A DNA stretch of 33,994 nucleotides, taken from IMG/VR virus record IMGVR_UViG_2802429242_000009, positions 1-33,994 of that record, one strand, 5' to 3'. Each line of letters opens with the position of its first letter. Position 1 is the first letter of the stretch. This document shows positions 30,001-33,994 of this stretch, one piece after another. This DNA is from a virus. Taxonomy: Duplodnaviria > Heunggongvirae > Uroviricota > Caudoviricetes. The position numbers are program-made.

Positions 30001-33000
30001 AAAACTTCAGTCATATCGTGATGAGCTTGTTCGCAATGCTGGCCCTGATGGTCCGGTTAATCTGGATTTGAAGCAATTAAGCGATCTGCGCAGCCAGTTC
30101 AGAATGGACGTGAAGGGGGAGCGACCAGTCTTACCAAACCGTTCCGATGCCGCCATTCAACGTGTTTACAAGGCGATGACCGACGATATCAATGGTGCCA
30201 TTGGTCAGAATCTTGGCAACGATACTCTCCGTAAATATCAGCAGGCCAATGCCGTCTACGCTGACGAAGCGGCGAAACTAAAGAATACCAGGCTGAAGAA
30301 TGTTCTCATGAAAGGAGACCTGACGCCGGAAGTTGTCAACAACATGCTATTCAGCAAGAACAAATCGGAAATTAAGACGCTGTATAACTCAGTTGGTCGT
30401 GTTGGCAGGGCGCAAATGCGCAATGGCATCATTGGAAAGGCGATGGAGAAATCTGGCGGATCCCCTGACCAGTTCCTTCGGCAGCTTAACATCCTGCAAA
30501 ACCAGACTGGCATCACATTTAAGGGGCAGGACGCTGCTTATCTGAAAGGATTAAAAAACTACCTGCAATCCACGCAGCAGGCTGCAAAAGCGGCAGTAAC
30601 AACACCCACAGGGCAGCAAACTATCCCGTTCATTATTGGGTATGGGACGGCAATGAACCCGGCGACAACTGGCGCAGCAGTAAGCTACGGACTTCTTACT
30701 CGCGCCTATGAGAGCGAGCCATTCAGAAATGCAATGCTCCGAATGGCAAACACCCCACGCGGATCAACAGCGTTTGAGAAAGCCATGCGGCAGGCGCAAA
30801 AGGCCATTAACGCCCTTACTCAGGGTGCCAAGTCTGATGCGTTGTCAGAATAGCTTCGCAAACACCAGGAACGTGCAAAAACCAAATATATAGAGCGCAA
30901 TATTCAACAGATCTCTTTGCATAGACTCATCTCATAATTAACAAATCATAACTGACATTAGTGCAATGCTGGGCAAGTTGCATCTTGTTCGGCATTGCTA
31001 CGTCCGGAGCAAATTAAATGACAGACATTACAGCCAATGTTGTAGTTAGCATGCCTTCGCAACTCTTCACTATGGCGCGTTCTTTTAAAGCGGTTGCCAA
31101 TGGCAAAATTTATATCGGTAAAATTGACGCGGACCCCGTAAATCAAGAAAACCAGATTCAGGTTTATGTGGAGAACGAAGACGGTTCTCATGTTCCTGTT
31201 TCGCAACCAATCATCATTAACGCTGCTGGATATCCGGTATATAACGGACAGATTGCCAAGTTCGTAACTGTACAGAATCACTCCATGGCTGTATATGATG
31301 CGTATGGCGCACAACAATTCTATTATCCTGATCTACTGAAATATTCTCCAGACCAGTTAAGGGCTGAGCTTTCTGGCCCTGATGGCGCATCTCTGGTTGG
31401 TTATGGAGGCACAACCGTAAAGATTGAGCTGGAGATCTTGAAAGCTACACATGATTCATTAATTGATAAAACAGGATTTAACGCTATTGGCCGCTTTCTC
31501 AATCTTTCAGAGCTTCGCTCCTGTGTTCCGGAGGAGGCAGGGCAGATTGTATACGTAGCATCAGCAGCTAGCACTACACATGCTGAAAACCACCTTGGTG
31601 GCGGCTTTTTCGAGTCTGTTGATAACATTCAGGCATGGGCTGATGATGGTGGAATTGTAATCAAGCCAGAAACTGGAACGATGGTATGGAGACGAATTAA
31701 TTTTACCACTTACGACATGCAATTTTGGGGGGTGAAACCTGACGGAGTCACAGATAACGCAACAGCTATAACTCTTGCAACTAACTTTGCCCGCTCAAAC
31801 AAATGCATTCTAGAGGCTCCTGCTGGAAACATAAATACATCAAAAACAATCCCAATTTATGACAATATGGGAATTAGAGGACAGGGAAAGGCTGAAGCGA
31901 CAGTTTTTTATAAAACAACAAATGACAAAATAGATCTCACAAAAAATGGAGAAGTAATTCTTCAGGTGGATGCATTATGTGCTTTTATACCAAAGCAATG
32001 GGATCTAACAGATAACTCAATGAGTTCATTTTGTGTTAACGGTAGAGTTGAAAACTGCATGTTTAGAAGGCTTGGCTTAACACAAGAAAACGTAGATTCT
32101 TATAGAAATTATTACGGACTGTTTTTAGGAAAATCAGCAGCACCAGTTATCAGACAGTCAATTTTTGAATGTGCTTATATCGGATGCTTCTCTTATGTGC
32201 CGTTCTCTGGCGTAATGGAAATGGTCGGTTTCCCACAATATCCAGGGAAAGGATATGCTGGAGTTTTATTTGAAGATTTTAGGGATGGTCAAATAAAAGT
32301 AATAGGCACTTCTATGGATATGCGCCTTGTTCAGGTTAACGGTTACCAGTTGTCATTTAGAATGTCAGGAATGCAATATACCACCATGACCAATTGTACT
32401 GCTGAAAACTGCACGCCAATGGATGGGGAGTCAATTTGCTATGCATTTGATTTTGTAAATCCTTATTGCATTGTCATGAATACTTGTGCAACAGAATTTG
32501 TTAAGGGTGGGCAACTGCGTGTTAGCGTTCAGGGAAACCCATCATTCAGACCATCTATTATTGTCAATGGCTTTCTGCCAATTGATCAACAAAGCCCGGT
32601 AATGCAAACACCTATAATAGATATTGATAATGGTGGCGTAGTTGAAATGAGTGTCATATTAAATGGTGGAGATTGGGCTATAAATCCATCTGCTGCAAAT
32701 TTAACCGTACCAAGAGCAAGCGGTTCTAAGTTGAAGGTAAGGATGATAGGGGTAAATGGGTCTCCGAAATCAATCTGGAACATCTCTGGTAACGCAGATG
32801 TTCAGGAGTTTTGAATTTACAAGTATTGACATAGCTCATAGATGAAACTAACCTGCCAAGATCATTAATGATATTGGCAGTGTTATGACTCAGAAAAACA
32901 AAATTATTCATAGCCTTACATCACTTCGAATGCTTGCGGCTCTTGGTGTATTTGTTAGCCATCTAGGCATTTTGTCTCAGTCTTCGATCTCGCAGTTCAA

Positions 33001-33994
33001 TGTTGCGGCAAAATACTTTTTTAATGGTTATATAGGGGTTACTTTCTTCTATATTCTTTCCGGATTTATTATTAATTACAGCTTTAGTAAGCATATGGAA
33101 GAAGGTAAATTTAGCAACAAGGACTTCATAGTTTACAGACTCGCGAGATTATTTCCTGTTCATATTATATCATTGATATGTGTCCTTTTTATATTTGGCT
33201 ATACAAAAAACTTTGAGGCTATAAATAAAGAGTCATTAATATATAATGCGCTATTGGTTCAATCATTTATCCCTATCTCAGATTACTATTTTTCTTTTAA
33301 CCCCGTATCATGGAGTATCTCGTGTGAGATGTTTTTTTATTTATCTTTTTGTCTTCTTGTAAAGTTTAAGTCACGATATCTAACAAGTACTCTTTTGGTA
33401 ATTGTTATTGTTAATTTATTTTTTTTATTGAACCCACCAGTTAATATTTCATCACACTGGCTGTTTTATATAAATCCATTTTTCAGGATTGGCGATTTTA
33501 TTATTGGTGTATTAATCAGTAGAGTGTTTCTTGCTAAAAAAGTAAATATAAAACCTGCGATATGTAGTGCCATGGAGATTGGCTCTCTGTTTTTTTTGGC
33601 GTTTACCGTATATGTAGCAACAAATTATGTTTCGTACATGAATATAAAATATGATCTTCTTTATATCCCATGTATGGCTATGATAGTAATAGCGTTTGCA
33701 TTTGATGGCGGGGTGATTTCTAAATTTTTATCTAACAGATATCTAATTCTATTAGGAGAGGCATCCTTCTCATTTTACATGTTCCACTGGATCATAATTT
33801 CTAAGCTAATGGAAATAATGCAACCAAACAAAAATGATGTACGTGATGTTATATTTTATATAGTTTGCTGTCTGGGTATTTCTATATTTTTCTCTATTAT
33901 ATCATTTAAATTAATTGAGATGCCGGCAAATAAAATAATAAGAAATGCATGGGCAAAGATGAACTTGAAATTAAGCACAAGAAGAAGTCTTTAA

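Follow-up and report, generated by a model that had tools for sequence, protein, structure and literature searches.

RESULTS

An acyltransferase gene downstream of a tailspike gene

The window, by which we mean the whole 33,994-nt stretch of DNA analyzed here (IMG/VR virus record IMGVR_UViG_2802429242_000009, Caudoviricetes; a P22-like prophage), ends with a tailspike gene followed by an acyltransferase gene. Predicted promoter elements and an inverted repeat are located at their junction:

31018-32814, + strand: tailspike gene; head-binding domain of P22 type (aa 1-113), receptor-binding domain of O103 type
32826-32831, + strand: -35 hexamer TTGACA, conserved at related loci
32849-32854, + strand: -10 hexamer TAACCT, which follows a 17-nt spacer and agrees with the consensus at three of six positions (T1, A2 and T6)
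32849-32885, + strand: extended helix, in which TAAC (32849-32852) pairs with GTTA (32882-32885) and T32881 is bulged
32853-32880, + strand: core palindrome or hairpin, CTGCCAAGATCATT / AATGATATTGGCAG, with arms of 14 + 14 nt and 26/28 symmetry
32861, + strand: predicted transcription start, an A at the seventh base past the -10 hexamer, giving a putative 24-nt leader
32885-33994, + strand: acyltransferase ORF (369 aa) with a PF01757 match; the final gene, whose stop codon is the end of the window

The 369-aa protein matches the Pfam family Acyl_transf_3 (PF01757) with a score of 83.6 bits against a cut-off of 31 (E = 1.7e-23), with residues 9-339 covering profile positions 2-323 of 326, and it matches PHROG 3333 ('O-acetyltransferase') at 5e-72. 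The motifs defined for acyltransferase-3 (AT3) proteins in PMC7448272 are all found: an R/K-X10-H motif (R15-MLAALGVFVS-H26), which is placed in the first transmembrane helix and is essential in OafA, an FFXISG-type motif (F55-Y-I-L-S-G60) and an RXXR motif (R85-L-A-R88). R15, H26, S59, G60, R85 and R88 are invariant across eight homologues. A Kyte–Doolittle scan, which reports hydropathy only and is not a dedicated topology predictor, gives ∼10 hydrophobic segments. There is no second domain and no fused SGNH domain, and the protein is therefore AT3-only. Searches with the protein returned nothing at E ≤ 1 from the PDB sequences and no match from NCBIfam. Megablast of positions 32700-33994 against 50,697 phage records was also without a match, and relatives were therefore collected through protein searches.

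The gene has a GC content of 0.308 (30.8%) and a GC3 of 0.295, compared with a mean of 0.487 (sd 0.025, minimum 0.405) for 1110-nt segments of the rest of the phage, taken across positions 1-31017. A sequence-only reading of this DNA had described a polytopic acyltransferase-3 of foreign, AT-rich composition, and the profile match, motifs and GC contrast agree with it on both counts, as does hydropathy for the polytopic topology.

Among the structural genes of the late operon the tailspike gene comes last; it is co-directional with the acyltransferase gene, with a gap of 70 bp between them. The tailspike matches Pfam Head_binding with E = 1.2e-64, and its residues 117-598 are 92.5% identical to gp48 of phage TL-2011b, a tailspike predicted to be O103-specific (PMC11522302, PMC10408124). 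The receptor-binding part is unlike that of Sf6 or P22, and megablast matches to known phages end at ∼31360; Sf6, Sf101, CUS-3, HK620-like phages and other relatives match only to this point. The pairing with a divergent tailspike proposed in the earlier reading is supported, the divergence lying in the receptor-binding part behind a P22 head-binding domain.

The two genes form a cassette that occurs in three or more phage backbones that are unrelated to one another, as well as in chromosomes. Uetakevirus-type relatives carry the acyltransferase gene between the tailspike and lysis genes, and L129 has a different full-length tailspike, after which comes the C-terminal remnant of a matching tailspike. 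At L001 and L004, which are identical or 99.9% identical copies, the gene adjoins gtrABC and int, and GAGGCGGTTTTCCGCCTC followed by T7 lies ∼20 nt past the acyltransferase stop as a strong terminator of its own. This terminator, the deviant composition and the absence from close relatives uphold the designation of the gene as a moron.

Oac of the Shigella phage Sf6 and the O-acetyltransferase of PhiV10, a phage of E. coli O157, are O-antigen acetylases that resemble the window protein in being AT3-only and encoded by temperate podoviruses beside the tailspike and integrase region, and the R/K-X10-H, FFxISG-like and RXXR motifs are common to them and the window protein (PMC7448272). Alignment to Sf6 Oac gives 31% identity across only ∼100 N-terminal residues, and neither the Sf6 nor the PhiV10 gene was among the tblastn matches of the window protein at E ≤ 1e-5. 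There is support for the view that the gene sits where P22-like phages keep their O-antigen conversion genes. We conclude that it very probably encodes an AT3-only inner-membrane acyltransferase that was acquired horizontally with the tailspike receptor-binding domain, likely O-acylates O-antigen and would be expressed from its own predicted promoter in the lysogen.

Linkage, position and analogy make it fairly probable that the target is the O103-type O-antigen bound by the adjoining tailspike. If the analogy holds, O-acylation of this putative substrate would be likely to alter the lysogen surface and lower re-adsorption of phages with the same specificity. For proteins of this kind, lysogenic conversion and the exclusion of phages of the same specificity are expected (PMC9558356, PMC7448272), and by analogy with Sf6 Oac and PhiV10, serotype conversion and superinfection exclusion are plausible roles for the window acyltransferase. 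The gene itself is probably an ordinary further example of a phage-borne O-antigen acyltransferase. Its link to an O103-type tailspike is unsurprising and helps serotype and phage–host prediction. With a receptor-binding domain and a modifying enzyme linked in at least three backbones, the 'key' and the 'lock-changer' move jointly.

A conserved predicted promoter

The promoter elements match the consensus at nine of 12 positions, six in the -35 hexamer and three in the -10 hexamer. A consensus promoter scan in which at least four of six matches were required in each hexamer did not call TTGACA-17-TAACCT. Across the related loci, however, the -35 hexamer is TTGAC(A/T) in 22 of 22 and always lies 17 nt before the -10 hexamer, in which none of T1, A2 and T6 changes across 21 variants. 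The hexamers and their spacing are held in these 21–22 loci though the spacer sequence diverges, and at L017 the -10 position is occupied by TATAAT. Where the upstream DNA is unrelated (L014, L143, L145 and L148), similarity starts at about -35. Conservation of the hexamers and of their spacing, rather than closeness to consensus, supports the prediction that the gene has its own sigma-70-type promoter. The earlier claim of a near-consensus promoter for this gene is therefore overstated for the -10 hexamer, which is at only 3/6.

When the rule used to place the predicted start in the window is applied to 10 modelled variants, nine have an A and a 24-nt leader; the exception is L035, with a C and 29 nt. 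The leader of ∼24 nt expected from the gene's own promoter is modelled as A/U-rich and largely unstructured.

An inverted repeat that joins the -10 hexamer to the start codon

The arms of the core palindrome occupy 32853-32866 and 32867-32880 and contain one mismatched pair. The 24-bp palindrome with 22/24 symmetry noted earlier is correct as the core of this repeat, which extends to 28 nt. No other inverted repeat with 14-nt arms and one mismatch or fewer occurs in the 34-kb window, and 40 composition-preserving shuffles yielded no such repeat. The center of the palindrome (32866/67) is 5–6 nt downstream of the predicted start. Relative to the acyltransferase ATG, it spans -32 to -5, with the 3′ arm at -18 to -5, in the Shine–Dalgarno position and 4 nt before the ATG.

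In the extended helix, the -10 hexamer is used twice: bases 1–4 form the outer 5′ strand and bases 5–6 are the first two of the palindrome. On the other side, the last base of GTTA (32885) is the A of the ATG start codon. RNA from 32845 to 32890 is predicted to fold at -16.3 kcal/mol (z = -5.8), and none of 200 shuffles is as stable. With its first bases within the -10 hexamer, the 5′ arm would be absent from the gene's own transcript, and because this arm precedes any start from the gene's own promoter, the helix could form only in RNA arriving from upstream.

Several other features of the junction were considered. An intrinsic terminator was rejected: a stem is present, but all variants lack a U-tract behind it (for example AGTGTTATG, AGAGTTATG), and a scan from the tailspike stop to the acyltransferase gene found no terminator-like site. 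Two features specific to the window lineage, the sequence GATC (32860-32863) and a uORF of six codons (32868-32888) with a stop that overlaps the main ATG, lack conservation among relatives and are therefore not treated as functional. Rfam models matched 32600-33100 only by a chance miRNA hit, at 20.6 bits where the threshold is 62.

Conservation and covariation of the helix

The helix is conserved, with compensatory changes, among acyltransferases down to 54% protein identity. In an alignment of 10 variants, 86.7% of cells are paired versus 32–48% in slid controls, compensatory change is seen at three pairs, and RNAalifold independently predicts the same stem. When degenerate variants are included (21 in all), 84.1% of cells are paired, 10 cells are changed on both sides and the covariation is 0.201, values of which the last two are reached by 3 and 4 of 500 shuffles, respectively. 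The 13-pair extended helix, scored in 20 variants, has 83.5% of cells paired versus 34–48% in slid controls, a covariation of 0.227, and 17 cells changed on both sides, with such changes at five of the 13 pairs. None of 500 shuffles matches the extended helix in pairing, double changes or covariation, although the shuffle counts for the 20–21 variants overstate significance because the variants are phylogenetically related. When the 40 nt preceding the predicted start were shuffled within each sequence, 0–30 of 150 shuffles reached the observed pairing, giving modest support. The compensatory changes suggest that the helix is maintained by selection, with the statistics inflated by relatedness.

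What is retained is complementarity and not sequence, as pairs switch among A-U, G-C and G-U in related loci. Mismatched cells of the G·U type number 14 and those of the A·C type 10, a difference that is not decisive for which strand folds. The five GC-rich pairs at the foot of the core stem, and the pair between T1 of the -10 hexamer and the A of the AUG, show little or no variation and may be kept for reasons other than pairing. CTGCC could be kept as the end of the -10 hexamer plus discriminator and GGCAG, which lies at -9 to -5 and is retained even at L147, where the 5′ arm is missing, could be kept as a weak Shine–Dalgarno sequence. Outer pairing that reaches the AUG adds eight pairs at L014 and six at L035.

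The distance from the 3′ arm to the ATG is 4 nt in 20 of 21 variants and 3 nt at L143. The 4-nt spacing holds for intergenic gaps of 70 nt, 97 nt (L035 and L146) and >300 nt, and a constant distance to the ATG at varied gaps indicates that the helix is anchored to the initiation region rather than to the tailspike stop. When viral contigs were scanned for exact matches to the promoter, hairpin and ATG geometry, nine loci were returned, of which one was new; all belong to the acyltransferase family, and the scan gave no sign of the element before other genes.

Stem strength and predicted accessibility

The stem is intact (8–10 bp, -11 to -15 kcal/mol) at nine loci where the gene directly follows an intact matching tailspike, namely the window, L006, L008, L035, L129, L137, L139, L141 and L151. 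It is weaker (-4.4 to -8.8 kcal/mol) at L005, L015, L144 and L146, eroded or lost in the chromosomal fliE-neighbor copies L014, L034 and L149 and also at L143, and partly eroded at L148. The correspondence with an upstream tailspike is not complete: the hairpin is missing at L017 despite a co-directional tailspike, and a good stem persists at L013 and L150, where the context is a remnant. At L149, L147 and L017, the gene is kept and the stem is lost.

We compared the predicted accessibility of the initiation region (-13 to +6) in read-through and promoter-initiated RNA. In eight of nine hairpin-bearing variants, the probability of being unpaired by folding prediction is 0.13–0.30 in read-through RNA versus 0.35–0.50 in promoter-initiated RNA, a contrast that is about two-fold and not all-or-none. 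L034 shows no such difference (0.54 read-through versus 0.49 promoter-initiated), and neither does the hairpin-less L017 (0.59 versus 0.54).

DISCUSSION

A proposed model for masking of the start in read-through RNA

The reading that we favor, at about even confidence, is that the palindrome functions as an RNA helix that forms in read-through RNA only and masks the ribosome-binding region, in the manner of IS10/IS50 fold-back inhibition. The 5′ strand of this helix would be composed of the -10 hexamer and the next 6–7 bases, all upstream of the gene's own start, and the 3′ strand of the ribosome-binding region, from -13 through the A of the AUG. The whole argument rests on the predicted -10 hexamer and the predicted start site. 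A late-operon transcript that crosses the tailspike gene would be the source of RNA able to fold the helix; folding would hide the initiation region, and an abundant late transcript would then yield little of the 10-helix membrane protein. Transcripts initiated at this gene's promoter in the lysogen would be without the 5′ strand and would remain translatable. We tentatively suggest that the two genes may form a mobile cassette with a built-in discriminator of transcript origin, the acyltransferase being translated only from self-initiated lysogen RNA and silent in late or lysis transcripts.

If true, this would extend fold-back inhibition of the insertion sequence type to phage morons and could be general for morons within late operons. 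The -10 element and the start codon would together make a compact device for keeping a lysogeny gene low inside a late operon, and the hairpin logic would be a new form of a known mechanism. Morons are usually described as just 'promoter + gene + terminator', and to our knowledge little is known of how a lysogeny gene in a late operon escapes over-expression.

Alternative roles for the palindrome

The hairpin might instead serve the upstream gene, as a 3′-end stabilizer, processing site or weak terminator of the tailspike mRNA, in which case the overlap with the promoter would reflect accidental compaction. Its position 38 nt past the tailspike stop, its expected restriction to RNA from the tailspike gene, and the pattern of stem strength, which is best kept under an intact upstream tailspike and eroded in chromosomal copies that have none, are all consistent with such a function. 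A terminator, however, is at odds with the missing U-tract and the negative scan, and stems of 9–14 bp fall short of the length typical of RNase III sites. Spacing from the tailspike stop also varies (38 nt, but ∼65 nt at L035 and L146), whereas spacing to the ATG stays at 4 nt, and the covarying outer pairs include -3 to +1 of the start codon, which a 3′-end element would have no reason to contact. We regard a role at the tailspike 3′ end as rather unlikely.

The palindrome had been called operator-like in the sequence-only reading, and dyad symmetry that covers -10 to +20 is indeed in the classical position for a dimeric repressor to sit over the -10 and +1 and shut the promoter; the outer CTGCC...GGCAG also keeps a 28-nt span in most variants. 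The inner half-site bases, however, are not conserved but vary among A-U, G-C and G-U pairs with complementarity preserved. The loop sequence is free to vary and is 5 nt longer at L035 and L146, which brings the span to 33 nt, and the extended helix is bulged on one side. The cassette at related loci carries no DNA-binding protein or regulator gene, yet the element is kept in P22-like, Uetakevirus-like and Tail_spike_N-type phages, with hosts from Escherichia to Aeromonas and Morganella. These properties make a DNA operator improbable. The RNA hairpin that had been offered as the alternative to an operator is the better reading, with the correction that the gene's own transcript cannot contain the 5′ arm.

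It is very improbable that the palindrome has no function and arose by chance or as a scar of recombination where the cassette joins. Its perfect inner part (ATCATTAATGAT) is particular to the window lineage and three loci retain the gene without the stem, as a functionless repeat would allow; against this stand its uniqueness in the window, its absence from shuffled sequence and the persistence of compensatory changes down to 54% protein identity while loops diverge freely. Finally, 5′-terminal hairpins are known mRNA stabilizers and the choice of start site may shift by a few bases, but an ompA-like stem–loop that protects the gene's own mRNA from 5′-end-dependent decay would need an earlier start and is the least credible of these possibilities, because the stem starts in the -10 hexamer, its covarying extension uses bases 1–4, which are outside any transcript from the gene's own promoter, and no other conserved promoter exists further upstream, as homology begins at -35.

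Comparison with known systems

Masking in read-through RNA has its closest parallel in IS10/IS50 fold-back, where the ribosome-binding site and start codon are covered by the 3′ arm, transcription of the element itself begins downstream of the 5′ arm and only external RNA is silenced. In the window, the core 3′ arm is at -18 to -5 and the outer strand at -3 to +1, and the 5′ arm would likewise precede the gene's predicted start. IS10 and IS50 protect transposase, whereas here a lysogenic-conversion gene lies in a phage late transcription unit and the effect on translation is predicted. A further difference from IS10/IS50 is that the -10 hexamer of the promoter itself supplies the 5′ arm. Sequestration of the IS10 translation signals in read-through RNA was described by Davis, Simons and Kleckner (1985), as cited in PMC13181058.

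Like the morons of Hendrix and Juhala, the acyltransferase gene is an added gene that deviates in composition and has a predicted promoter of its own; it is inserted between the tailspike and the integration module. It differs from them in traveling with a tailspike receptor-binding domain and in carrying a structure that appears designed to discriminate transcript origin. Sf6 oac is convergent with the tailspike gene, with a terminator between the two, and is not exposed to late read-through because of this orientation; the window gene, in contrast, is co-directional, 70 nt downstream and without an intervening terminator.

The same two-gene module is present as gp48-gp49 in Escherichia phage TL-2011b, a Uetakevirus from an O103:H25 host, where it also has a 70-bp intergenic region. 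Our literature search found no functional study of gp49 or its leader. The TL-2011b backbone differs from that of the window phage, with gp49 flanked by the tailspike gene on one side and the genes for holin and endolysin on the other, and gp49, annotated 'O-acetyltransferase', is 63.6% identical to the window acyltransferase. Its promoter reads TTGACA-17-TAATCT and its hairpin CTGCCGGAA-10-TTCCGGCAG, a stem that differs from that of the window by compensatory changes from A-U to G-C.

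An AT3 acyltransferase gene with a predicted promoter of its own

A prophage of the P22/Sf6 kind (Lederbergvirus-type), with the customary gene order, makes up the window, which ends at the stop codon of an acyltransferase gene; the matching IMG/VR contig is UViG_2563366852_000004. The features of this end are as follows.

31018-32814, + strand: tailspike gene, with a 70-bp gap to the next ORF
32826-32831, + strand: -35 hexamer TTGACA, a perfect match to consensus
32849-32854, + strand: -10 hexamer TAACCT, matching consensus only at T1, A2 and T6
32853-32866 / 32867-32880, + strand: palindrome arms (14 + 14 nt), 26 of 28 bases paired
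32885-33994, + strand: acyltransferase-3 ORF, 369 aa

The encoded protein matches PF01757 (83.6 bits, cut-off 31) and PHROG 3333 'O-acetyltransferase' (5e-72), contains ∼10 hydrophobic segments, and carries R15-X10-H26, F55YILSG and R85LAR88. Motifs of the R-X10-H, FYILSG and RXXR types are essential according to OafA and Oac mutagenesis (PMC7448272). The relationship to Sf6 Oac itself is distant (31% identity over ∼100 residues), and a PDB sequence search (E≤1) found no solved structure related by sequence. The GC content of the gene is 30.8%, compared with 48.7 ± 2.5% for equal-sized windows elsewhere in the phage. The sequence-only reading, which had described a polytopic acyltransferase-3 far more AT-rich than the phage, is correct on the gene and its composition. 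The gene is a further member of an already known kind.

The same reading called the promoter near-consensus, which holds for the -35 hexamer but not for the -10; TTGACA-17-TAACCT was not called by a consensus promoter scan. We nevertheless accept this predicted promoter as real at the sequence level, on comparative grounds. The comparison covers 21-22 related loci from E. coli, Cronobacter, Franconibacter, Cedecea, Pseudescherichia, Hafnia, Morganella and Aeromonas, whose proteins share 50-100% identity. All have TTGAC[AT] as the -35 and TAnnnT as the -10, invariably 17 nt apart, with a spacer sequence that diverges. Where the upstream DNA is unrelated, homology starts at the -35. The consensus TATAAT occupies the -10 position in L017, a locus with a tailspike gene upstream.

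A predicted, conserved helix links the -10 hexamer to the start codon

The palindrome that had been noticed before the gene proved to be the only inverted repeat of its kind in the window, and none arose in 40 shuffles. With four more bases per side, it folds as RNA at -16.3 kcal/mol (z = -5.8). We compared 21 distinct leader variants, which came from collections of viruses, genomes and metagenomes as well as homologue-encoding contigs. Across 10 variants, 86.7% of the cells of a 9-pair stem are paired (32-48% in slid controls) and 6 cells are changed on both sides (three pairs affected; covariation 0.225); RNAalifold independently predicted the same stem from this set. The paired fraction is 84.1% (controls 22-50%) when all 21 variants, including degenerate ones, are used, and 83.5% (controls 34-48%) for a 13-pair extended helix in 20 variants. 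Changes on both sides affect 10 cells of the 21-variant stem (reached in 3 of 500 shuffles; covariation 0.201, 4 of 500) and 17 cells of the extended helix (0 of 500; covariation 0.227, 0 of 500), although these shuffle counts overstate significance because the sets contain related sequences.

In the extension, the first four bases of the -10 hexamer pair with positions -3 to +1, the last of which is the A of the AUG; a one-base bulge usually separates these pairs from the core stem. There are six outer pairs in L035, which has an intact tailspike, and eight in the chromosomal copy L014, covering the whole AUG. Five of the 13 pairs show compensatory change, two of them outer pairs with the -10 hexamer. 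Stem pairs 6-8 alternate between A-U, G-C, G-U and U-A; the base of the core stem (five GC pairs) and the pairing of -10 T1 with the AUG A vary little or not at all. Loop sequences are mutually unrelated, and those of L035 and L146 contain 5 additional nt. G.U and A.C cells number 14 and 10, a count that does not identify the folding strand. In 20 of 21 variants, exactly 4 nt separate the core 3' arm from the ATG, whether the intergenic region measures 70 nt, 97 nt or >300 nt.

Some features of the palindrome are peculiar to the window's lineage. A six-codon upstream ORF inside the hairpin (32868-32888; ATG ATA TTG GCA GTG TTA TGA), whose stop codon and the main ATG share the sequence ATGA, is found only in this lineage and so probably arose as a side effect of the extended palindrome. 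A GATC (Dam) site at 32860-32863, at the predicted transcription start, is conserved in no other variant. Elsewhere in the window, three inverted repeats with 12-nt arms and ≤1 mismatch (4867-4894, 15741-15772 and 28264-28299; ∼0.6 expected from shuffles) may be terminators or regulatory sites.

Stem strength and genomic context

Where an intact tailspike lies immediately upstream, in the nine loci window, L006, L008, L035, L129, L137, L139, L141 and L151, the stem is 8-10 bp long and folds at -11 to -15 kcal/mol; L129 is a partial case. Weaker stems (-4.4 to -8.8) occur in L005, L015, L144 and L146. The stem is partly eroded in L148 and eroded or lost in L143 and the fliE-adjacent chromosomal copies L014, L034 and L149, and L147 lacks it. 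Three loci depart from this trend: the remnants L013 and L150 keep good stems, and L017 has no such stem despite the tailspike upstream. This pattern supports a phage-linked role.

Several of these loci have unusual arrangements. The P22-like L129 (1-2750, minus strand) encodes a complete tailspike with a different receptor-binding domain, followed by a 112-aa C-terminal remnant of the matching cassette tailspike and then by promoter, hairpin and acyltransferase gene, an order that looks like the footprint of a cassette insertion. In L014, L016, L034 and L149 (Pseudescherichia and related chromosomes), the gene adjoins the flagellar genes fliE and fliF in surroundings devoid of phage genes; the promoter is kept and the core stem is eroded or lost. 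Further glycosyltransferase genes lie downstream in L149 and L150. In L015 (3001-3045), a P22-like contig assigned to an Acinetobacter MAG, the start codon reads ACG instead of ATG and the stem contains a mismatch; this copy may be in decay, or the differences may be artefacts of sequencing or binning. L017 (∼1735-1775) lacks the start-codon hairpin but has another inverted repeat, ATCAAAGTCAATGT-9 nt-ACATTGACTTTGAT, with perfect 14-nt arms; the -35 hexamer falls within its 3' arm, and this repeat may be another way of handling tailspike read-through.

A proposed fold-back model for read-through RNA

The 5' strand of the helix runs from the first base of the -10 hexamer to about the predicted transcription start (the seventh base after the -10, which is an A in 9 of the 10 variants modelled and leaves a leader of 24 nt). 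It would therefore be absent from RNA of this predicted promoter, and only RNA from upstream could fold. A scan found no terminator between the co-directional tailspike and acyltransferase genes. In Uetakevirus-type relatives, where the acyltransferase gene has the tailspike gene on one side and the holin and endolysin genes on the other, the late transcript would have to cross it. In Sf6, by contrast, oac is convergent with the tailspike gene, with a terminator between them, and is not exposed to late read-through.

The 3' strand covers the Shine-Dalgarno position. The predicted probability that positions -13 to +6 are unpaired is 0.13-0.30 in read-through RNA versus 0.35-0.50 in promoter-initiated RNA for eight of nine hairpin-bearing variants, with no difference for L034 (0.54 versus 0.49) or for the hairpin-less L017. 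On comparative and thermodynamic grounds, the likeliest reading of the leader is a fold-back element that forms in read-through RNA only. In the lysogen, the membrane acyltransferase would be made from its own promoter, whereas in late RNA the helix would fold and the protein would be poorly translated. A plausible, though speculative, selective reason is avoidance of an excess of a 10-helix membrane protein shortly before holin-timed lysis. IS10 and IS50 escape activation by external transcription through fold-back of read-through RNA, and the proposed leader would share this logic. For IS10, sequestration of the translation signals in read-through RNA is attributed to Davis, Simons and Kleckner (1985) in the account of PMC13181058. 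If correct, the fold-back leader would be a known regulatory principle in a new form.

The strongest alternative, a 3'-end or terminator element of the tailspike mRNA, agrees with the context trend in stem strength. However, no U-tract follows the stem, its anchor is the downstream ATG rather than the upstream stop, and the start codon is among the covarying outer pairs. A repressor operator, as the sequence-only reading had suggested, would fit the position, but the half-sites and span are variable, a bulge is present and no regulator travels with the cassette. A palindrome without function is unlikely given its conservation, and a 5'-terminal stabilizing stem of the acyltransferase's own mRNA would be possible only if the promoter had been misassigned. 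Overall, the original observation is confirmed and its interpretation partly supported.

Spread of the cassette and likely function

The nearest named phage is TL-2011b (Uetakevirus, O103:H25 host), whose gp48 tailspike shares 92.5% identity with the window's in the receptor-binding domain and whose gp49 is 63.6% identical to the acyltransferase. Its intergenic length is also 70 bp, its promoter is TTGACA-17-TAATCT, and its hairpin, CTGCCGGAA-N10-TTCCGGCAG, has the same ends and 28-nt span with a different interior. The receptor-binding domain (55% to 98% identical to the window's) accompanies the gene in P22-like, Uetakevirus-like and a third, Tail_spike_N-type phage.

Such joint travel involves at least three backbones (window 31360-33994; L006, L137, L008, L139, L141, L151, L035 and L146), the third having a P4-like integrase. 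In L006 and L137, the domain is 97-98% identical and the acyltransferase only 65-80%, which suggests either recombination near the 3' end of the tailspike gene, within its final ∼100 nt, or faster acyltransferase divergence.

Sf6 Oac and the PhiV10 acetyltransferase, which belong with the window protein to the AT3-only class, alter the O-antigen and block re-infection (PMC9558356), and the predicted target of the linked tailspike's subtype is O103 (PMC11522302, PMC10408124). Together with the gtrCBA/intS neighbourhood of near-identical copies, these points make O-antigen acylation the most likely role of this candidate O-antigen acyltransferase. In the loci L001 and L004, with acyltransferase copies identical or 99.9% identical, the DNA downstream of the gene (L004 4111-7107, L001 7296-11700) begins with a strong terminator, beyond which lie gtrCBA as a convergent operon, intS and tRNA-Arg; a prophage with this arrangement therefore carries two O-antigen modification modules, for acylation and glucosylation. 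The terminator, which is bidirectional (GAGGCGGTTTTCCGCCTC then T7), lies immediately after the stop codon, and the genes beyond it (gtrC-gtrB-gtrA, intS and argW) lie outside the window. A remnant in E. coli 33-6 and 58-3 consists only of a tailspike 3' fragment, the conversion genes and int.
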